The position numbers were made by a program, and so were the translations under genes. Shown here piece by piece: positions 14,591 to 42,289 of a DNA stretch of 64,000 bases (within the stretch, counting starts at the first letter, position 1; every line of letters starts with the position of its first letter). The notes beneath the pieces were generated by a model. It was not told where the DNA came from and did no database searches. It saw only the letters and a program-made list of their open reading frames with translations. Source of the DNA: Okamejei kenojei (Eukaryota); NCBI GenBank assembly GCA_035221665.1, contig CM069150.1, positions 25,544,001 to 25,608,000 of the forward strand, written 5' to 3'.

Positions 14591-14925
14591 CTACTCAACC
14601 GAGCCATCTTCATCTTTAAGACTGTGGATCATAGAGCTTGCCCTGTGAACCTTATGGAAGAGGAAGCGTGAGCACGTCTTATCCTGCTCCATGCAGCGGA
14701 CTCTGGATCGAAAGATGATCTTGCAGGATTCTGAGGAAAAGAGCCGAGCTTTCCGGCACTTCATTTCTCGAAGTTCCTCCCTCACATCCATCCCCCTCGA
14801 CCTCAGAAGGAAGAGTTGCTCAAAATCTGTCTGGAGTTGGCACAATTCCCTTTGACTCTGTCTTGCTCTCTGCACAACTTTGAGGATGAAGAACCTCTTG
14901 AAGGATGCTGCCAAGCCAACTGTAG
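14591..14925 (-). mobile_element. Tx1/L1-clade ORF2 fragment (linker between endonuclease and RT)
   Basis: FKRFFILK...KIIFRSRVRCMEQDKTCSRFLFHKVH...SLKDEDGSV. Confidence 0.8.
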
Positions 14926-16284
14926 CGTTCCCGTCGGGTGTTAACACGGTTCTGTGCAGCACTACGCTCACAGAAGGCCTGCTGCCAGCACATCTGTGTT
15001 GGTGACCCGGCATGCCCGACTGGGGGGGCTTGACTAGTGGTGCTTTGCATTCACATTTTTCTCTGTTCTGGGAGGCGTTGCTGCAACAGTCAGCCCGGGG
15101 TTGGGTTCTCAGCCAGTCAATTTACCTGTCTCACCACTTATGTATTATAACAAGACATTTCCAGCAGGGGCCTATTGAGGACATATGGCTTGCTGCTTTC
15201 TAGAACCATTAGATACAGTGCAGCTGCGTGTGGTCTATGGCCTCAAGACACACCGCTGCAAATCAGCCACATTCGTGAGTGAGTTCTGCAGCCACCCGCA
15301 GCCACCCCAGCCAAGTAAACTGCCCTTTAAACAACTAATGACTGCTTTATTCTTCATAAACTATTTTAAGCATCCTCTATCTTGATGTATTTCAATACCA
15401 GTTATTTATAGTAATATATGAATTAATCTTTCATGACAACTTTGGAAATCTTGATTGTCATTGTTACTTTTAACACTGTTTAACTTTGAAAACGTTATTA
15501 AAGTTAAATAAATTACTGTCAGTTCTTTCAGGAAGATAACCTAGTAAAACAGGGTGGAGTTTGACATTTGTAAACTTTTAAACTTTCAAAATGTTAAGCT
15601 AAAATGTTATGCTTGTAGAAAACCTATCCAATCGCCCCAATAGCCCCAATTGATCGGTTTACCAGGTTGCCGGCCATTCTAAAACTGCGACAATTCCTAT
15701 GCCCAACATTTTGGCTTGGATTATATTTATCACAAACACAGCTTGACCCAATTCCAACAGCTGGTAGTATGTTTATTTTTTTCTGGCTTTGCTTTACTCA
15801 TGGGCAGATGCACCCTGCAACCAAAGCAGGGATAGAAATATTGGCCAGCACCTTCAAGTTATCACATTTCGCTAGTGTACTGTGGGAACATGCACATGGG
15901 AATTAGGTTGTAAACTCCAATGTAAACAATCTTTCATGCCCAAAGCAATACTCACTTGAAAGTATCTACCACTGACACATATGGCTTGCAATAAATACAA
16001 TTGCACGCAGTCCCTTGTACCCAGCTGCAAAGAGTTTGCTACCATGTTCAGAGAACTGCAGTAAAGTGATGTTATGATGATTACATACATCAAGACTGTA
16101 TTACTCTTCACAACATTGACTATATTGGGGACAAATGCACACAAATGCAATGTATGTTGATCTAAATTGTACTGATATTGCCTGTTAAAAATAGGTATTG
16201 AAATTTGTAGAACTTATAAAGTTTGCTCTCACTGCTTATTTTTCCCATCTGGTACTTTTACAAAGACGTTGATTCTCACGTGAT

Positions 16285-16593: not shown

Positions 16594-17931
16594 TGTACTC
16601 TGAAACATTTATTGGGAAGATAAATGGAACGCTAGGATGTCGTATGTAATTCAACCAAAATGTAACTTTACTTACAAAATTCAATTCCAGTCTTTCTCTT
16701 TTCATTTTCCCCATTGAATTTTCGCACACAAACTATATATCAAATAAGAGGGAAATGCTTTGTTTGGCAACTTTTCCCAGTATTATTAGAAGTTTGACAT
16801 TGACACTAAGAAGAGTTTACTTTTTGCTCCCCAGCTGGAATAGAGAGGCAGCTGTGAACTACAGAAATGTTTGAAATGTAAATTCAAAATGGCTAGTTCA
16901 CACTATTGTGTACTGGCTAATCACAACTGAAACTCACCATGTTGTTCAAATCGAATGGTGGCTTCCACACATTCACTTGACTTTCACATAAAGCTGTGAT
17001 GACAGTAGTTTAACACAAATAAATGGACTTTTTATCCAGATGGAAGAACATTTCAGCTACAGTGGATGAGCCATGTGTGATTTTAAGTTGTTTGATGGGG
17101 AATTTTTTAAGTGAACTCTAATTACGATAAACAGCACAATTCCTTGTCAGAATCTGATCTTTAACTTTACATCTGCATGTGTGAAAGAGTCACACAATAG
17201 CCAAGTCCTAAAATGTTGGGTTTTGGTCTTGGTAGTAAATGTGAAAATGGAAAGACGTGGAGTTGCATGCAGTACGGTGCAGATTATTGTCTGAGCTGCT
17301 TAATGCATGCTTATGTGGAGAGTGTTCAACATTCCACTGATGAGATGATTGAAAGGAACTCTGTTTTATCATAAACAATAATCTACCTTGTCCCGACATT
17401 GGGAAGATTAATTATAGGCATTCACTTGTTGAATGTAAAAGTTTGTTTGAAATAGCATACCCAACATTACATTGCATCTGTATTAAAAGACTGTGCAAAT
17501 CATAACATATGTTTAGCAAGTTGTGATTTATTTTCCAAATATCAAATTTTCCAAGTGTTGATTGGTTTGTTAATGGAGTCTAAGACCTAATCATAAGGGT
17601 CTTATCATCACAGTTGGAATTTTGAAGATATGCATTAAATGGTTGAAGTAGTCATGGAAACAATGGGAACATATCCAGCTGTATATTTTGATGACACAGT
17701 TGATAATTTTAACATTCTTGAACTGATTAAGAAGAAGGAGGCATTGCAGGATAGTGGTTGAAGTTTATTTTACTTCGGAGTCACGTGAGTGACTTCGTGA
17801 AGACCCCGCCAGCACGCATGCGCGACATATTGTCGCGCGAATTTGCTCGACAAGCTGGGGGGCGGAGTGCGCTCTCTCCACCAGCTCCTTCATAAGGACC
17901 GGCAGGTAAGTACTTACCTTACTCCCACAGG

Positions 17932-19717
17932 ATGGACAAAGGCAAACGGAAGGCGACGCTCTCCAGGAGCCGTGCTGCATCGACCAGCCAACGGCCTTTG
18001 TCACCGGAGCTGCAAGTACCAGCAGCTTCGGGATGTGTGGGGGCAGGAATGCGGAAGTCGGGCGCTCCCGTTACTCTAGCGCCCGACTCATCACCTGAAT
18101 GGTTCACCGCACCGGAGCTGGAGACTGCTGATCCAGACTTCGAGCCCATTCCCCCAAGAAAAGAGGGGGAAAACAGGTACGTGGGAAGGAGCCTCGCTCA
18201 TCACCAGCGACATCACCCCGAGTTCCAGCGGACCCAAGGAGACTGGGCCGGGGGACAGGTGCACTGCAGGGGAGCCCTGCAGCTGCGCACCATCACATAC
18301 AACTGCCAGGGAGATCTGCCGTAGAGCAGTCTGGCAGATCTACTGCTGCGTCGAGCAGACCTGTAGGAGCAGGTGCTGCCGGCAAAACACCCCGTCAGGC
18401 TGCGGTCAAGGGCGGTGGTGGCAGCAGTAGACGGTTGGTCAGCTTAGCTCTGGGAACGGCCGACCATGCGCCTCCACGCCGAATATTGGGCGACAGCGGA
18501 GATAAGCCTGCACGGACTCCGGGGAGCCAGGTTCCGGGGGCCGGCGCCGATCCAACTCACCTGCCTTCGTATCAGACAGGTGGGCCGCCACAGTCTGGGA
18601 GAAGACAGACTAGCGGAAAGTCCGTGCGGGAGTCGTATGAGCCTACTCGGGCGTTAGGCCACGACAACCTGCCATTGGACCCTAGACAGCACCTTACGGA
18701 GGGTGGTCCGATGGTGGAAGCCCCAGTGATATTGCAGGGCCTGGGGAAGTCGGCTTGTCCGCTGCACATAGCAGGGACGGTTGCATAGAGCGGTTGGAGC
18801 TCTTAGTGGAGCAACTCCTCCAGCGGGACAGGGACCGGGAAGAACGGGACTCGCGGGCATCCACAAGCCGCGCAAGGAGTCCCCTCAGTATCTCGTCTTC
18901 ACCAGCCAGAAGTGCCAGCAGTTGCCCAGCCGCTGTATTTGAAGACGACCCGGGACAGCCAGAGACCGCAGAGCCAGAGCATAAGGAGGATATGCTGGAC
19001 GTGGTGGGCACGTTTGCCACAACCACACAAACAGGGGAACCCCTGCACCACAAATTGGCGGGCACCATTGATTACCTGACTACTCACCAACTCCAGAGTC
19101 AGGTACTCAATAACGCAATGGAGAAAATAAAGCCACCCGAGAACTGCATCAACCTCAGTGTTCCCCTGGTTAATGCTCAAATCTGGGGACACTTGAGCAC
19201 GGCCACCAGGATGCAGGATGTCCGCCTCCAGCGTATCTTATAGGTCCTCTCCACGGGTATAACGGCATTTGCTAGGACCCTTGACGGGAATAATGTGTCC
19301 AGCGAACAACAAGATGCCCTGGCACTCCTATGCAACGCCCAGTATGAGATCAACTGCCTGCGTAAGAGCTCCATAAAGGCCACACTCAACCCCAAATTCG
19401 CGGGGTCGTGCCGTCCATCAACCGCTCCACCGCCTCATCAACTGTTTGGAGATTTGTCCAAACAAGTGAAGGAACTAGACGAGGAGGCCAAAACAGCTGG
19501 CCTAATGAAACCTCCTACGACTAGACTTCACCCACACACAAACTGGAAACCGCGGCAGCCGGACAGGACACCAAGGGCCTATCCCCCTCCACTTCCCCAA
19601 ACACAGCGGCCTTTTTTAGGGCAAGGCCAACAGCGGCCTGCATGGAAGATGCGGCCGCCATCCCGACAACCTCCACAACGTCCAGCCAAAACGACATTCG
19701 CCAGGAACCGTCGTTAA
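17932..19717 (+). pseudogene. DIRS ORF1 (gag-like), frameshifted, with an internal stop at 19241-19243
   Basis: ATG at 17932 opens a low-complexity N-terminus. The C-terminal part (KPPENCINLSVPLVNAQIW...DVRLQRIL*...DALALLCNAQYEINCLRK...LFGDL) resembles DIRS gag and ends at TAA 19715-19717. Confidence 0.8.
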
Positions 19718-19719
19718 CC

Positions 19720-21640
19720 ATGGAGGTAAGGGGGCCTGGTTCCTCTCAGACCGTAGCATCCCTTCCTGCACAAATTGGTGGGCGATTGCGGGCCTTTTTG
19801 GGAATATGGAACACTATCACCACAGGCGAGTTTATTTTACAAAGTGTTCAAGGTTAATGTCATAGAATTAATCGGTGGTAAAAATCCCCCTACCCAGCAT
19901 TCGCCTCATCGGAAATTTACACTCTCCCAAAAAGAGGTGGAAGCAGGACATGCTGAAATTGTACGGCTAGCAGCAAAAGGGGTGATTGGGAAAACAATGC
20001 ACGAACCCCTTGAGTTTGTGTCCAACATTTTCACCAGAATTAAAAAAGATGGGGGGTATCGAATTATAATAGACCTAACTGAGCTGAACACCTTTGTACA
20101 ATATACCCACTTTAAAATGGATACCTTTGAAACAGCCAAGCAGATGCTTTACCGGGGTACTTTATGGCATGCATCGATTTAAAAGATGCATACTATACAG
20201 TGCCCATCACTGAATCTCACAGAAAGTTTCTGAAATTTGTCTGGAAGGAATAATTATTGGAATACAAAGCATTGCCCAATGGAATCACCACAGCCCCTAG
20301 ACTATTTACAAAATTAGTAAAACCTATATTGGCTCTTCTCCGACAACAAAATTACATGGTCATGGCATATTTAGATGATATCCTAATAGTGGGTCAGACC
20401 CTCCAATTGGCTACACGGGCAGTGGCAGCAACTAAGGCTTTATTCGAGAAGCTGGGATTTGTAATCCATCCAGACAAGTCAAAATTGCACCCATCACGGG
20501 TAATGGATTATTTGGGGTTCACCCTAGACACCACCTTAATGATGATCACCATCCCAACCAATAAAGCTACCGCTATAAAAGAAGAGTGCCACAGTCTTGC
20601 TTGCGCCAGGGTACCGACCATCCGGCAAACGGCAAAAGTAATAGGGAAATTGGTAGCTACATTCTCAGCTGCACAATTCGGACCGCTACATTACCAAAAT
20701 TTACAAAGAACAAAGATCGCAGCATTAAAAGCAAATGCTGGGCACTTTGATCGATCAATCCGGTTACCACCAAAGGCTAGAACCGAGCTACAATGGTGGA
20801 TTGACAATATTAGCGAGTGTCGCAGACCCATCATAGTAAGCAACCCATCCGTCGTGCTACAGACTGACGCAAGCGCACAAGGCTGGGGAGCAACTGATAC
20901 TATGTCCAGTTGTGGTGGCAGATGGGTCTACCTTCCTTCAGTCACACGGGATAAATTATACAGAAATGCTGGGGGCATTTCATGGACTGCGGGCTTACTG
21001 TACTAACTCACGGGACTTACATGTCCGCCTCCAAATAGATAACACAACAGTGGTGGCTTACATCAATCATATGGGTGATATCAGGTCGTTATCTTGTGAT
21101 GGATTGGCAAACACAATTTGGCACTGGTGCATCGAGAGGAATATTTGGATTACAGCGACCTATTTGCCAGGGAAGCTTAATACAGTGGCGGACACCAGGT
21201 CACGAGTATTCAATGACAACATCGAGTGGATGTTGAACCCCCAAATTTTTGGAGACATTATAGCTCACTACGGGACACCAGATATTGACCTTTTTGCGTC
21301 CAGGTTGAACCTTCAGATACCAACGTATGTGTCTTGGGAACCAGACCCTGGGGCAATAGCAATGGATGCGTTTTCTATCCATTGGGGGAAATGGTTTTGC
21401 TACGCATTTCCCCCATTTTGCCTCATCAGTCGGGTATTGCAGAAAATTAAACTAGACTCTGCAACTGGCATATTGATCATTCCCGACTGGCCTACACAGC
21501 CATGGTACCCGATGGTCCTTAAAATTTTGAAACGACCATGGGTTTCGATTGGGAAACACCCCAAATTGATTACTCACCCCATTACGGGGGATAGTCATCC
21601 ATGCCATGGTCACCTAAACTTGTTGGCCTGCAGGTTCTAA
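19720..21640 (+). pseudogene. DIRS ORF2: reverse transcriptase, RNase H and Dam-like methyltransferase domain (frameshifts near 19857, 20148 and 20927; stop at 20251)
   Basis: RT motifs: GGRLRAFLGIW, KKDGGYRIIIDL, IDLKDAYY, LPNG, YLDD (20368-20379). RNase H motifs: TDASAQGWGA, DNTTVVAYIN, LPGKLNTVAD. MT motifs: DIDLFAS and YAFPPF. Confidence 0.93.
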
Positions 21641-22582
21641 AAAGACCACTCATCAAGGCGGGTGTCTCACCACGAGCCATGGAACTCATCTCAGCATCAT
21701 GCCGAGAATCAACTCGGAGGCAGTACCTCACGCAGATCAGGAAGTGGGAGGCATTCTGCTCTCGTACCAACACGACTTCCAACACGGCAACTATCCCTGA
21801 TGTCCTGGAATTCCTAGCTGGCCTTCATTTCGATGCTGGCCTTAGCTACAGTGCCATCAACAGCGCCAGGAGTGCACTATCCTCATACCTGGACATAGGT
21901 ATAGGCTCAAACCACCTGGTGTCTAAACTCATGAAGGGAGTGTTCAACACCAACCCTCCACGACCCAGATACACCTTCACCTGGGATGTAGGGATCGTTC
22001 TGACCCTACTGAGGAGCTGGGCTCCAATGAACGAGTTACCACTCAAACAGCTCACCCTCAAAGTGGTGATGCTGATGGCACTGACTACAGCCCAACGAGT
22101 CCAGACATTACAAAAGCTGTGGCTGGATAGCATGGTTTCCACCCCTAATCAAATTAATTTCTTTGTCCAGGACTTATTGAAGCAGCACAGGCCAGGGGCT
22201 CATGGGCTGCAGTTGGAGTTTCGGGCATACCCTGTAGATGCCACCCTCTGCATAGTCACCCCTCTCCACCACTATATCGGAATTACAAAAACCATCAGGA
22301 AGAAGGAGCAGGGGCTCCTCATCAGCCACAAACCTCCGCATCATCGGGTGACTGTACAGACTATCGCCAGGTGGCTCAGGGTGGTGTTGGATGCAGCAGG
22401 AGTTGCTACTAACATTTTTAAATCTCATTCCACTAGGGCTGCATCCACATCAATGGCGAGGGCCATGGAGGTGCCCATGGACCGTGGGCTGGGCCAGTGA
22501 AGAAACCTTCCAAAGGTTCTACAATAAGCCACTGGTCGCCCCTGCGACATTCGCAGAAGCTGTGCTGGGAGCCGCTCAGTGA
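21601..22582 (+). pseudogene. DIRS ORF3: tyrosine recombinase, frameshifted by a deletion near 22485
   Basis: SAM-like N-terminal domain (STRRQY...WEAFC), AQRVQ (catalytic R) and HSTRAAS (HxxR). GWASEETFQRFY (W and catalytic Y) is in the shifted frame 22391-22582. Confidence 0.93.
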
Positions 22583-22752
22583 ATGTCTGTCCCCGAATCA
22601 GGGGTTATTTGTTTGTTATTATTTGATTAATAAATTGTATTATTTTTTCAGCCAGTTTTGACTGAACTGCATTAACAGCCTTCCTCCATCAGAATTGCGG
22701 CAGTGTGATAGCATGGACGTTGTCCAGGGCGTGAAATCACAGAGCTTTGAAA

Positions 22753-22866
22753 TCTTCACGAAGTCACTCACGTGACTCCGAAGTAAAATAGTAAGATTAA
22801 ACGAGAACTTACCAAGTTCGAAGGTTGATCTTTATTTTACGAGGAGTTGCGGTGAGGGATTTCGTG
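22753..22866. repeat. DIRS internal complementary region (ICR)
   Basis: 22753-22790 is the exact reverse complement of 17766-17803. 22787-22866 is the exact reverse complement of 23005-23084. Confidence 0.97.
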
Positions 22867-23235
22867 CCCCCCGCTCCCACCCTCTATCATAAGGTCAACT
22901 CGGAAGTTCTACGTTCTTCATCTTACTATTTCCAGTCATGGTGTGTTCTGCGATTCCACACCGCTGCTTTGAAGGATGTCGCGCATGCGTGCTGGCGGGG
23001 TCTTCACGAAATCCCTCACCGCAACTCCTCGTAAAATAAAGATCAACCTTCGAACTTGGTAAGTTCTCGTTTAATCTTACTATTAATTTTGTAATGCAGC
23101 TAAACTTAGAATTAAACTAAAATTAATAGTGGAACTCTTTCTTTTGAAATGATGAGCAGGTGTCTATTTTGTTTACTAATGTTATGTAAAGCAGTGACAT
23201 CTATCCCAGACCGAATTGGTCGGACAATAATAAAG

Positions 23236-23742: not shown

Positions 23743-23990
23743 GGCAGGACCTTGACGGTGAATGGAAAGGCAGTGTTGTAGAACAGAGGGATCTCGAAGT
23801 GCCCCACATAGTTCCTTGAAAGTGGAGCCACAGGTAGATAGGATGGTTAAGAAGGCTTTAGGTACATTAGTCTTCATTGATTATATAAGTTATGTTATAG
23901 TTGTACAAGACGTTGTTGAGGCCACATTTGGAGTATTGTGTTTGATGTTTTCCACCCTGCTATAGGAATTATATTGTCAAGCTGGAACAA

Positions 23991-24623
23991 GTGCTGGCCT
24001 TTATAAATCAGAGCATTGAATATAGGAGTAGGGAAGTAATGTTAAAATTGTACAAGGCATTGGTAAGACCAATTCTGGAGTATGGTGTACAATTTTGGTC
24101 GCCTAGTTATAGGAAGGATGTCAACAAAATAGAGAGAGTACAGAGGAGATTTACTAGAATGTTGCCAGGGTTCCAGCAACTATGTTACAGAGAAAGGTTG
24201 AACAAGTTAGGTCTTTATTCTTTGGAGCGCAGAAGGTTAAGGGGGGACTTGATTGAGGTCTTTAAAATGATGAAAGGGATAGACAGAGTTGACGTGGATA
24301 CGTTTTTCCCATTGAGGGTAGGGAAGTTTCAAACAAGAGGGCATGACATGAGAATTAAGGGACAGAGGTTTCGGGTAACGTGAGGGGGAACTTCTTTACT
24401 CAGAGGGTGGTGGCTGTGTGGAATCAGCTTCCAGCAGAAGTGGTGGAGGCAGGATCGATTTTAACATTTAAGAGTAAAGTGGATAGGTATATGGACGTGA
24501 AGGGAATGGAGGGGTATGGTCTGAGTGCAGGTAGATGGGACTAGGGGAAAACAAATGGTCGGCACGGACTGGAAGGGCTGAGAGGGCCTGTTTCCGTGCT
24601 GTAATTGTTATATGGTTATATGG
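23991..24623 (+). mobile_element. Young 5'-truncated CR1 with (ttatatgg)n tail
   Basis: ORF 23991-24383. Nearly identical to 61422-62063. Confidence 0.95.
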
Positions 24624-38799: not shown

Positions 38800-41700
38800 A
38801 CAGAATTGAGAAAATTCAATGTTCAAGCCCAAAGGATGCAAACTCCCCAAGCGGAATATAGGTGCTGTTCCTCCAACTTGCGGTGTTGCTCACTCTGGCC
38901 ATGGAGGAGGCCCAGGACCGAGAGGTCGGATACGGAATGGGAGGGGGAGTTGAAGTGCTGAGCGACCGGGAGGTCGGGTTGGTTTTTGCGGACCGAGCGG
39001 AGGTGTTCGGCGAAACGATCGCCAAGCCTCCGCTTGGTCTCACCGATATAGATCATCTGGCATCTGGAGCAACGGATGCAGTAGATGAGGTTGGAGGAGG
39101 TGCAGGTGAACCTCTGTCGGACCTGGAAGGACTGCTTGGGTCCCTGAAAGGAGTGGAGGGGGGAGGTGAAGGGACAAGTGTTGCATTTCTTGCGGTTGCA
39201 AGGGAAAGTGCCCGGGGAAGGAGTAGAGCGGAGGGAGGGAAGAATTGACAAGGGAGTCGCGGAGGGAGCGGTCTTTGCGGAAGGCAGACAAGGGGGGAGA
39301 TGGGAAGATGTGGCGGGTGGAGGGGTCACGTTGGAGGTGGCGAAACTGGCGGAGGACTATCTGTTGTATTTGCCGGCTGGTGGGGTGAAAGGTGAGGACC
39401 AGGGGGACTCTGCCCTGTTTGCGAGTGGGGGAATGGGGAGAGAGGGCAGTGTTGCGGGGTATGGAGGAGACCCTGGTGCGAGCCTCATCAATAGTGGGGG
39501 AGGGGAATCCCCGTTCTCTGAAGAATGAGGCCATTTGTGATGACCTGGTGTGAAACGCCTCATCCTGGGAGCAGATGCGGCGTAGACGAAGGAATTGGGA
39601 ATAGGGGATGGAGTCCTTACAGGAAGCAGGGTGGGAGGAAGAGTAGTCCAGGTAGCTGTGGGAGTCAGTGGGTTTGTAGTGGATGTCGGTCAGGAGTGTA
39701 TCACCTGCAATTGAGATTGTGAGGTCAAGGAATGGTAGGGAAATGTCGGAAATGGTCCAAGTGTATTTGAGTGCCGGATGGAAGTTGGTGGTGAAATGAA
39801 TGAAGTCAGTCAGTTGTGTGTGGGTGCAGGAGGTGACACCAAAGCAGTCATCGATGTAACGGAGGTAGAGGTCGGGGATGGGGCCCTGGTACGCCGAGAA
39901 CAAGGATTGTTCGACGTACCCAACAAAGAGGCAAGCGTAGCTGGGGCCCATGCGTGTGCCCATAGCTACGCCTTGTGTTTGGAGGAAATGGGAGGAATCG
40001 AAAGAGAAGTTATTGAGGGTAAGGACCAACTCCGCTAGGCGGAGGAGGGTGTCAGTGGACGGGTATGGGTTGCTCCTCTGGTCGAGGAAGAACCGGAGGG
40101 CTTTGAGACCGTCCTGGTGGGGGATAGAGGTGTAGAGTGACTGGACGTCCATGGTAAAGATGAGAGGATGGGGGCCTGGAGAATGGAATTGCACGGAGCC
40201 GACGGAGAGTGTCTGAGGTGTCTTGAACATAGGTGGGGAGGGATTTAACAAAGGGGGATAGGATGGAGTCAAGGTATGTGGAAATGTGTTCGGTGGGGCA
40301 CGAACAGCAGAGACAATGGGTCTGCTAGGGCAGTCGGGTTTGTGGATTTTGGGGAGAAGTTAAAATCGGGCCGTGCGGGGCTGGAAACGATGAGGTCGGA
40401 GGCTCGGGGGGGTAGGGAGCCGGAGCTGATGAAGTCGGTTATGGTGCTCGAGATGGTGGCCTGGTGTTCGTCAGTGGGGTCATGGTCCAGGGGTAGGTAG
40501 GAGGAGGTGTCCGAGAGTTGGCGCATGGCCTCCGCTTTGTAGAGATCGATGCGCCAGACTACCACGGCACCTCCCTTGTCGGCGGGTTTGATAACCCAGT
40601 CTGGGTTGTTACGGAGTGAGTCGATGGCAGTACGTTCGGGGCTGGAGAGATTGGAGTGAGACAGGGGAATGGAGAAGTCGAGGCGGTTGATGTCCCAACG
40701 GCAGTTCTGGATAAATAGTTCTAGAGCCGGAAGGTTACGAGGGGGGGGTCCAGGTGGAGGGGTACGTGGGAGACAGGAAAAGGGATCATCAGTGGGGGCG
40801 AGGACTTCTTCCCGTGGAAGAACGCTGTGAGGCGGAGGCGACGGTAGAAGAGCTCCAAGTCGTGGTGGGCGTGGAACTCATTGAGGTGGGACGGAGGGGG
40901 ACAAAGGTAAGACCTCTGCTGAGGACAGACCGTTCGGTGTCGGTGAGGGGGAGGTCCGGGGGGATGGTGAACACGCGGCAAGGATGGGGGTTGTGGCCGG
41001 AGGAAGGCAGGTGAGTGCACTGAGGACGGAGCGTTGTTGTGGTGGGGGCGTGGAGAGTGGTCAGGGGGTGGGGGGGTATGGGGGCTGTGGTGTGGGTGGG
41101 GAAGAGCAGGGGTTACATGGTAGGGGGGGGATGGGGAAGATCCAGTGGAATAGCCACTAAGGTTACTGGGGCTGGGGAGACGGGCACTAGGACCCAGTGT
41201 GATGGGAGGAGTTAGCAACGTGGAGGCTTCAGGCCCACTGTAGAGTCCAGTCTGCAGGTGAGGCGACGGCTGCGGGCTGCTGGAGGGCGGTGGAGAGTCG
41301 TGGGTCGGCGGCCCGAAGGTAGGAGTCCGCGGGCAGTGGAGTCGGGGTCGGCGGGCGATGCGTTGGCGGTCCTGATGGGCGGGTGGTTGGTCCGACCGGT
41401 GAGGCGGCGAGATGAGTGGGGTGCGGTGTGGCGGCCGTGTTTCGGGTGGCCCCGGTCCGGCGGCGATGCAAGGTGCGGCTGTGGTCTTCGGCGGGCCCAG
41501 TACACTGGCGATGCTGGATGGGCCCGGTGTGGCGGCTGTGGTCTTCGGCGGGCCCAGTGCACTGGCGATGCTGGATGGGCCCGGTGCGGCGATGGGGTTA
41601 GGTGGTCCCGGGGGGCGGCGAGGTTCGGCAGTCGCGTTGCGCTGGTGATGGGCGGTGGAATCGGGGAGGGGGAGATAAACAGAGTTACCGGGCAGGCAGC

Positions 41701-41852
41701 GGGGCTGGGCGTCATCAGTAGGCAGGTGGAGGTCGGCGGCAGCATCGGCGTGGAGGTCGGTGAAGGCGGCGTCCTGGTGAGTCCTGGAGGCGCTCCTCGT
41801 GGACAAGATGGTGTCGGGGGACTCAGGCCGGCGGCTCGGGCCAGAGTTGGGG
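38800..41852 (-). pseudogene. Penelope polyprotein: Pro-rich N-terminus, RT and GIY-YIG endonuclease, with several frameshifts
   Basis: Motifs VLSRGLTFVP, IKPADKGGAVVV, TMDVQSLYTSIP, GVAMGTRMGPSYA, RYIDD, LPFLDL and YKPTD. Zn-linker CNRKKCNTC. Endonuclease motif NLIYCIRC..CQMIYIGETKRRLGDRFAEH. Confidence 0.93.
41475..41590. repeat. 57-bp tandem duplication (19 aa, PGPSSIAS[A/V]LGPPKTTAA) inside the Penelope ORF
   Basis: Two near-identical units gcggctgtggtcttcggcgggcccagt...ggatgggcccggtg. Confidence 0.9.
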
Positions 41853-42289
41853 CTCCTTCGCTCCTTAGATGCTGCTGCACCCGCTGAGTTTCTCCAGCAT
41901 TTTGTGTAACCCTCGATTCTCCAGCATCTGCAGTTTCTTCGTTAACACCAAGTCTTTAAGAATTGATTTACTTTGCCTAGTAGGAGGAATCTCATTCCTT
42001 ATTCTGTATGTTTCAATGAGATCCCCCTCATTCTTCCAAACTCCAGCGAGTATAGGCCCTGTACTTGTCCTGCATAACATGATGCTGAAAGACACTAAAG
42101 AACAGAGGGTGCTGCAAGTTCAGGTAGAAATGGATTATAAAACAACACACATTTTCGCAACGCCATAAAGTGTGCAGAAATATTTGTCAGGTGGCAGTTT
42201 CTTTGTGCTCTTCCTGAGGAATACAATACTCCAATGAAAATACAACAAAAATAAAAACACTTGTATAAAATGAATACTCCATGCAGTCT

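Follow-up and report, generated by a model that had tools for sequence, protein, structure and literature searches.

A DIRS1-like element with overlapping frames

The window analysed here, a stretch of 64,000 nucleotides (nt) from Okamejei kenojei (assembly GCA_035221665.1, contig CM069150.1, positions 25,544,001 to 25,608,000 of the forward strand), holds a full-length, decayed retrotransposon (Table 1). The element is DIRS1-like: it has inverted terminal repeats (ITRs), an internal complementary region (ICR), ATT at both ends, a reverse transcriptase (RT), an overlapping tyrosine recombinase (YR) frame and a long gag-like first open reading frame (ORF1). The available text of the overview by Piednoel et al. 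(2011, PMC3266345) defines DIRS1-like elements by an ICR matching both ends and by NTT end triplets, and gives them, as here, gag, a pol with RT, RNase H (RH) and methyltransferase (MT), YR, a pol/YR overlap, ITRs, an ICR and ATT ends. In the parts seen, this overview and a Xenopus DIRS preprint describe the overlapping frames, not how a start-less 3′ recombinase is translated; added here is an account of how the overlapping YR frame would be expressed.

A survey of the 2.76-Gb genome gave 39 further copies of the window family at ~92-97% identity with the same ends. In the window copy none of gag, pol and YR is intact; in other copies gag is open for 602 codons (locus L048) and pol for 644 codons (L035). 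The gag frame had zero Pfam matches. The RT domain PF00078 was matched with E values of 9e-14 in the window and 2e-18 in L035, and no Pfam match to RNase H or methyltransferase followed the RT in the window family; full-length homologs at 47-49% identity matched PF05869 and PF17917 below the curated cut-offs. The YR frame matched PF02899 above the cut-off, and PF13495 and PF00589 below it. Pol and YR overlap at 21595-21640 in the window, and the last pol codons, C-R (TGC AGG), contain the acceptor discussed below.

Table 1. Features of the element, in window coordinates (a slash marks a predicted splice boundary here and in the text)
Feature	Position	Strand	Remarks
DIRS1-like retrotransposon, full length, decayed	17767..23084	+	ATT at both ends; ends common to 39 other copies
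Left inverted terminal repeat, conserved part	17785..17828	+	pairs with 22976-23019, 95% complementary
Leader donor CAG/GTAAGT in palindrome GGTAAGTACTTACC, then pyrimidine-rich AG	17906..17930	+	AG just before gag ATG
gag (ORF1)	17932..19717	+	frameshift and stop in window copy; gag label by position
Predicted -1 slippery heptamer T TTT TTA	19612..19618	+	gag reads P-F-L-G, pol frame F-F-R-A; open to donor
Gag-skipping acceptor of the earlier note	19691..19704	+	weak, unconserved, rejected
Stop-start cassette TAA CC ATG GAG	19715..19725	+	gag stop, pol-frame ATG, last exon codon
pol (RT/RH/MT)	19720..21640	+	four frameshifted pieces in window copy
Predicted optional phase-0 intron GTAAGG...TTGTTGGCCTGCAG	19726..21633	+	1908 nt; spans RT, RNase H and methyltransferase regions
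In-frame ATG upstream of acceptor	21601..21603	+	by-product of synonymous pol codon; not retained in sister families
Tyrosine recombinase (YR) from acceptor on	21634..22500	+	shortened in window copy; 320 codons in many others
In-frame ATG 15 codons into YR, rival start	21679..21681	+	kept in window family and family B
Internal complementary region	22753..22866	+	both element ends matched, 100%
Right inverted repeat and right extension	22976..23084	+	complementarity to left end

A predicted intron that spans pol

An earlier note on this DNA had proposed that the ATG just behind the gag stop is followed at once by a 5′ splice site, and that joining 19725 to 21634 would remove the whole RT/RNase H/MT region and express YR. 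The letters on which the proposal rested are all in place: TAA at 19715-19717, ATG at 19720, GAG/GTAAGG with its GT at 19726, CAG/GTAAGT with its GT at 17906, the acceptor TTGTTGGCCTGCAG/ ending at 21633, and an AG ending at 19704. The join lands in the YR frame as predicted, and the proposed splice was supported by joined DNA copies, by a conserved donor and acceptor in phase and by the protein XP_072015819.1. The further statement that ATG 19720 opens the RT frame did not hold in the window copy, which meets a stop after 45 codons, and held in 35 of the 39 other copies.

Conservation within the window family was rejected as a test of splicing, as the ATG was retained in 37/39 copies and the GT at 19726 in 38/39, no better than the background position identity of 97.6%. 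Sister families were then represented by 20 copies of ~65% protein identity, found with a diverged YR query. These copies retain TAA CC ATG GAG/GTA, with GTAGGT replacing GTAAGG. Across seven copies from families 70-83% alike, the 14 letters of TAACCATGGAG/GTA were invariant in 7/7, and only 1 of 34 upstream columns was invariant.

At the other end of the predicted intron, all 20 sister-family copies have a YR-frame stop shortly upstream of the acceptor with no ATG between the two, and 19/20 keep the YAG. In the window family, 25 of 35 copies have a stop in the YR frame 13 codons ahead of the acceptor. The earlier note had named ATG 21601 as a possible start of YR, which would have spoken against splicing. 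This ATG was absent in 20/20 sister-family copies and variable in family B, one of the sister families, and it is not the YR start because the sister families have a stop and then no ATG before the acceptor.

A side observation concerns the sequence behind the donor, where a G-rich run (GGG..CTGGTT, window 19726-19741) was conserved in 7/7 copies across the families of this genome. It may reflect coding constraint or an intronic enhancer.

Genomic copies that lack the predicted intron

A junction probe of the genome hit 13 places, and a reversed control pattern hit 0; the same 13 came back with a broader probe and with a DNA query spanning the junction. All 13 belong to family B and read gag, then TAACC ATG GAG/GTT CTG AAG AGG CC, then YR, without exactly the GT..AG stretch of that family. 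Their right end is intact in most, and they have their own 3′ flanks. The other 27 family B copies that were fetched retain pol sequence, most of them with GAG/GTAAGG and TTGGCTTGCAG/ ~1.9 kb apart.

Ordinary deletions were collected from 64 copies with a rough script. GT..AG ends were seen in 0/35 and four-letter overlaps in 4/35. The element contains 66,851 four-letter repeat pairs; with overlaps at this rate, any one deletion would fall on the predicted AGGT pair with a probability of about 2 in a million.

Gag is present in every one of the 13 intron-less copies, and 11/13 keep both ends of the GT..AG stretch in the leader; the RNA that was copied would therefore have been spliced once, at the RT intron only. 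Nine of the 13 have in common a derived 5′ part that was absent from the full copies, and all 13 share sub-lineage letters; trees of intron-less and full copies on 400-nt parts resolved no single clade. The suggestion in the accessible text of PMC7192593 that the DIRS-1 RT of Dictyostelium acts in trans would fit a copying of the spliced RNA in trans. In their present form the intron-less copies (L203-L215) are a non-autonomous subfamily. Ahead of the leader, 9/13 carry an extra 5′ gag piece of another lineage, and a normal left end was not found within the fetched stretch of these copies.

Donor and acceptor in distant families

A pol alignment search of metagenome, metagenome-assembled genome and viral contigs gave 99 loci at 35-53% identity, whose source is likely animal host DNA. 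They formed 69 clusters at 80% identity, of which 44 had both anchors and were used for the donor and heptamer tests, and 61 had the YR anchor; three of the latter were removed from the acceptor count for frameshifts. A YR profile search of viral contigs had no match, and a pol profile search of the same contigs gave one locus. Among the loci, 18 contigs in bacterial genome bins (L170-L187) hold DIRS-type pol, many with spliceosomal signals, and are likely host DNA.

Donors were scored out of 7 against the consensus MAG/GTRAGT. In the 120 nt before the RT motif GGRL, a donor of at least 5/7 was present in 40/44 clusters versus 93/550 control windows, and one of at least 6/7 in 23/44 versus 3/550. 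The donor was in phase 0 in 38 of the 40 clusters, compared with 45/50/10 over the three phases in controls, and the donors lie 5-34 codons from GGRL in sequence that could not be aligned. The use of AGY in donor V-S codons (28/28) was dropped as circular, the donors having been picked by those letters. In two loci, L123 and L142, a pol-frame stop lies 18 and 3 codons before the donor, respectively, and gag of L123 is in the same frame; read-through, re-initiation or decay may account for these stops.

The commonest acceptor lies at P-F/S of pol, inside the methyltransferase region and 104-110 codons ahead of the first Trp of YR. The Ser is an AGY codon in 41/43 cases, versus 24/93 for other F-S pairs. 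Where this AG is present (42 clusters), an open YR frame reaches back to it in 39; where it is missing (16 clusters), the frame stays open that far in 1. Clusters without the P-F/S AG mostly have an in-phase acceptor 37-40, 61-62 or 104 codons before the first Trp; the window element is of this type, with P-F-C and the 37-codon site. Within the open YR stretch, 44/57 clusters have their best YAG in phase 0 alone, and in 12 of 58 distant families the open YR frame holds no ATG before the first Trp. Together with the joined copies of family B, these comparisons place the donor/acceptor pair of 19726-21633 beyond chance, and the splice that removes RT is very likely real and general.

Entry into the pol frame

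The earlier note had made ATG 19720 the common start of RT and YR and had overlooked T TTT TTA G, which at 19612-19618 sits in the gag/pol shift frame. T TTT TTA and A AAA AAC are the heptamers of the human immunodeficiency virus 1 (HIV-1) and mouse mammary tumour virus (MMTV) type. In the window family the heptamer is in frame, with pol open from it to the ATG, in 35/39 copies; the same was found in 22/27 copies of family B and in 8/14 sister copies. Of 39 distant clusters, 34 have pol at -1 relative to gag, and in 32 of these the distance from gag stop to donor is 5-62 nt. Either T TTT TTA or A AAA AAC occurred in the shift frame in 26/44 clusters, compared with 9/292 and 5/157 control windows, and the other two frames held a heptamer in 2 and 0 clusters. 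The A AAA AAC sites of 11 families and the TTTTTTAT sites of 3 occupy the same place and frame and are unable to be acceptors. Downstream of the heptamer the predicted fold had z -1.4 in the window, and none was found in family B. In three clusters gag and pol share a frame, yet the donor is retained; there Gag-YR would need no frameshift.

A pol-frame ATG before the donor was absent in 27/44 distant clusters. As a shared start of RT and YR, ATG 19720 is thus plausible in this lineage, where it is invariant in 7/7 copies, and does not extend to those 27 families. Across families, a -1 frameshift rather than this ATG seems to be the usual way into pol. In this lineage both are conserved, and re-initiation at TAA CC ATG may provide a second entry.

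We also considered the same intron with ATG 19720 as the sole start of both RT and YR in this lineage, reached by ribosomes that re-initiate once past the gag stop, the heptamer being a leftover or kept by the Gag residues F-L-G. The invariance of TAACCATGGAG/GTA next to variable upstream columns would suit this, as would the context of the ATG (A at -3, G at +4), a homolog of 57% identity that also starts MEVG (P0122), and the retention of gag and ATG in the intron-less copies. Against it, the heptamer retains its exact codons, its frame and an open overlap of 37-41 codons in the copies counted above, and the closest distant relatives, L091 and L092, have the heptamer and no ATG. Re-initiation as the sole entry is therefore unlikely in our view.

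The leader donor and the skipping of gag

The earlier note had further joined the leader donor at 17905 to 19705, skipping gag, in a three-tier scheme in which unspliced RNA makes gag, single-spliced RNA makes RT and double-spliced RNA makes YR. The acceptor it quoted, cattcgcCAG at 19704, depends on a T that is a private change found in 0/39 copies. Only 6 of its 14 letters are pyrimidines, compared with 9-10 at the AGs at 19606 and 19619, and the AG was not retained at this position in sister families. As a sequence signal the 19704 acceptor is not beyond chance. It had also been overlooked that the leader donor has an AG of its own at 17930, 25 nt on. This GT..AG stretch is 25 nt in the window family (34/34 copies), too short for an intron, and ~55-65 nt in the sister families (L070-L087, L216-L242), where it is intron-like with a strong pyrimidine tract before the gag ATG. 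No leader-joined genomic copy was found by the genome probes, which is weak as absence; the one match to a leader join, at L202, was a chance match inside gag.

With gag kept in 13/13 intron-less copies, this evidence tells against both the gag-skipping splice and the three-tier scheme built on it. A variant in which the leader donor joins either 19704 or TTTTTTAG/ at 19619, so that one splice gives RT and two give YR, could draw on the strong leader donor in all families examined in this genome and on the 9/14 pyrimidines of TTTTTTAG. Retrocopies also sample packaged RNA only, so gag-less mRNAs remain compatible with them. We nevertheless regard the skipping of gag as very unlikely, given the nearby AG of the leader donor, the weak and unconserved 19704, the lack of leader-joined copies, and the A AAA AAC and TTTTTTAT sites, non-acceptors that occupy the place and frame of the heptamer.

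The leader donor lies in a self-complementary stretch, GGTAAGTACTTACC (window 17904-17917), with z +0.65 in the window; in family B a hairpin with z -2.5 was predicted (L231:385-450). This palindrome may control use of the donor, or U1 may bind there with no splicing.

RNA and protein evidence

Contigs of five sequencing runs were mapped to the window element and to a family B copy and behaved as DNA. The predicted joint was absent among the joints listed from these contigs (51 further joints from the runs mapped to the family B copy were unlisted), which, with DNA-like runs, is no evidence either way. The four runs mapped to the family B copy all hold the empty site of insertion L231:256-5831, which marks them as DNA-like; this insertion is absent from at least some chromosomes of those samples.

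A search for long YR proteins returned 32 matches. Among them XP_072015819.1, a RefSeq model from the brittle star Amphiura filiformis, has Gag joined to YR without RT at GE/PD, the very junction predicted for its relative L150. The N-termini of 120 listed YR homologs contained no clear spliced form. Separately, YR proteins of 920-1480 amino acids without RT or clear Gag similarity were noted (P0247-P0250, P0252, P0254-P0259, P0261); in these the YR frame is likely open along all of pol, a solution other than an intron.

Model for the expression of YR

The explanation that, as a whole, we hold to be probable is that pol is an optional intron and that the spliced RNA keeps gag and makes YR. Its first step is also the firmest: the phase-0 donor that closely follows the gag stop is joined to the acceptor with which the YR frame begins, a join seen in DNA and highly probable for RNA. 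It is fairly likely that ribosomes would then shift -1 at T TTT TTA, so that Gag-Pol would come from unspliced RNA, Gag-YR from spliced RNA and plain Gag from both, with YR placed behind the same short pol-frame segment as RT. More tentatively, re-initiation at TAA CC ATG would be a second entry in this lineage and would give a free RT and a free YR that start M-E-V; the two steps are not mutually exclusive. The unspliced RNA would be the genome, the spliced RNA could be copied in trans, and a splice that skips gag would be unnecessary. On balance we lean towards the broader view that animal DIRS1-like elements share an ancient code, with a retrovirus-type -1 frameshift at the end of gag and an optional intron that swaps RT for YR, in which an acceptor that changed phase several times sets the length of the pol/YR overlap and the stop-start ATG was added in this lineage.

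Several findings weigh against this model. The acceptor tract of the window is middling, with 8/14 pyrimidines, and AGGT occurs at both donor and acceptor, which means that deletion through microhomology would yield the same junction. The 13 intron-less copies probably descend from one event or molecule, because the derived 5′ part is shared, and under the general junction pattern no intron-less copies were found in other families, including that of the window. No RNA junction was seen in the DNA-like runs, and XP_072015819.1 is a predicted, gene-model protein. The distant clusters are related, so their counts overstate independent events; the donor windows differ from the controls in sequence make-up; and P-P-F codons are pyrimidine-rich anyway. 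For the frameshift, 15/44 families lack a strict heptamer in an open pol frame, the downstream fold is only modestly stable (mean z -1.0 in 28 cases versus -0.2), TTTTTTAG at the heptamer can be read as an acceptor too, and ATG 19720, being invariant, suits a start codon in this lineage.

The AGGT at both intron ends, the lack of an RNA junction and the ATG at 21679, kept in the window family and family B, could together point to no functional splicing at all: the signals would be by-products of coding, the 13 copies would stem from a microhomology deletion and YR would be made from an ATG of the 21679 type on a short RNA. This we judge highly improbable. A deletion would rarely hit the predicted pair, given the estimate above, and the donors are in one phase despite their varying distance from GGRL in unalignable sequence. 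The 12 families whose open YR frame has no ATG ahead of the first Trp also tell against it, as does a second frame of 108 codons that stays open only where the AG is present.

Relation to known systems

In retroviruses the unspliced RNA is both the genome and the Gag-Pol message, and the env and accessory splices skip gag-pol from a leader donor. In the DIRS1-like elements the donor instead follows both gag and the frameshift site, from which two alternative fusions to Gag would result. The gag-pol frameshift of HIV-1 and MMTV uses the same two heptamers (U UUU UUA and A AAA AAC) in the same frame relation. Non-autonomous retroelements made from spliced RNA likewise leave intron-less copies with their own flanks and no RT; unlike other processed copies, those of family B have lost as their 'intron' the element's own pol gene.

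The nearest described case that we found, by analogy, is the splicing of shGAG in Ty1/Copia elements (Arabidopsis EVD), where, in the accessible text of Oberlin et al. (2017, PMC5580714), a conserved optional intron likewise derives a second mRNA from the genome RNA. The shGAG splice with early termination gives Gag alone, whereas the DIRS splice would swap RT/RH/MT for YR, leaving gag and the 3′ end in place. In the parts available, neither PMC3266345 nor the Xenopus DIRS preprint mentions splicing, introns or translation, and the splicing in PMC7192593 concerns a marker intron. No account of an RT-removing splice was found in the portions seen of PMC6681497, PMC5633606, PMC4157794, PMC5941688, PMC9341512 and 10.64898/2026.05.21.726589, nor elsewhere in the open literature searched, whose coverage does not include the founding DIRS papers. 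A literature search for slippery sites in DIRS retrotransposons had no match. An abstract by Goodwin and Poulter from 2004 is reported to mention spliceosomal introns in YR retroelements, so an earlier description is possible.

Fish, amphibians and marine invertebrates commonly carry DIRS elements. If the model is true, Gag, Gag-Pol and Gag-YR would all come from one promoter, and in this lineage free RT and free YR from one codon. It would explain the fixed lengths of the pol/YR overlap, the Gag-recombinase fusion would be a route of the integrating enzyme into the particle, and current YR annotations would begin at the wrong residue. Splicing would also be a possible host control point for the RT:YR ratio.

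Other elements in the window

Frames with RT and GIY-YIG-like similarity lie at 38823-41955 on the minus strand and presumably represent a Penelope-type element, judged by its motif. Fragments of long interspersed elements (LINEs) were noted at 23887-24383 (+), which we take to be a CR1-like 3′ end, and at 14591-15121 (-), which we take to be an L1/Tx1-like piece.

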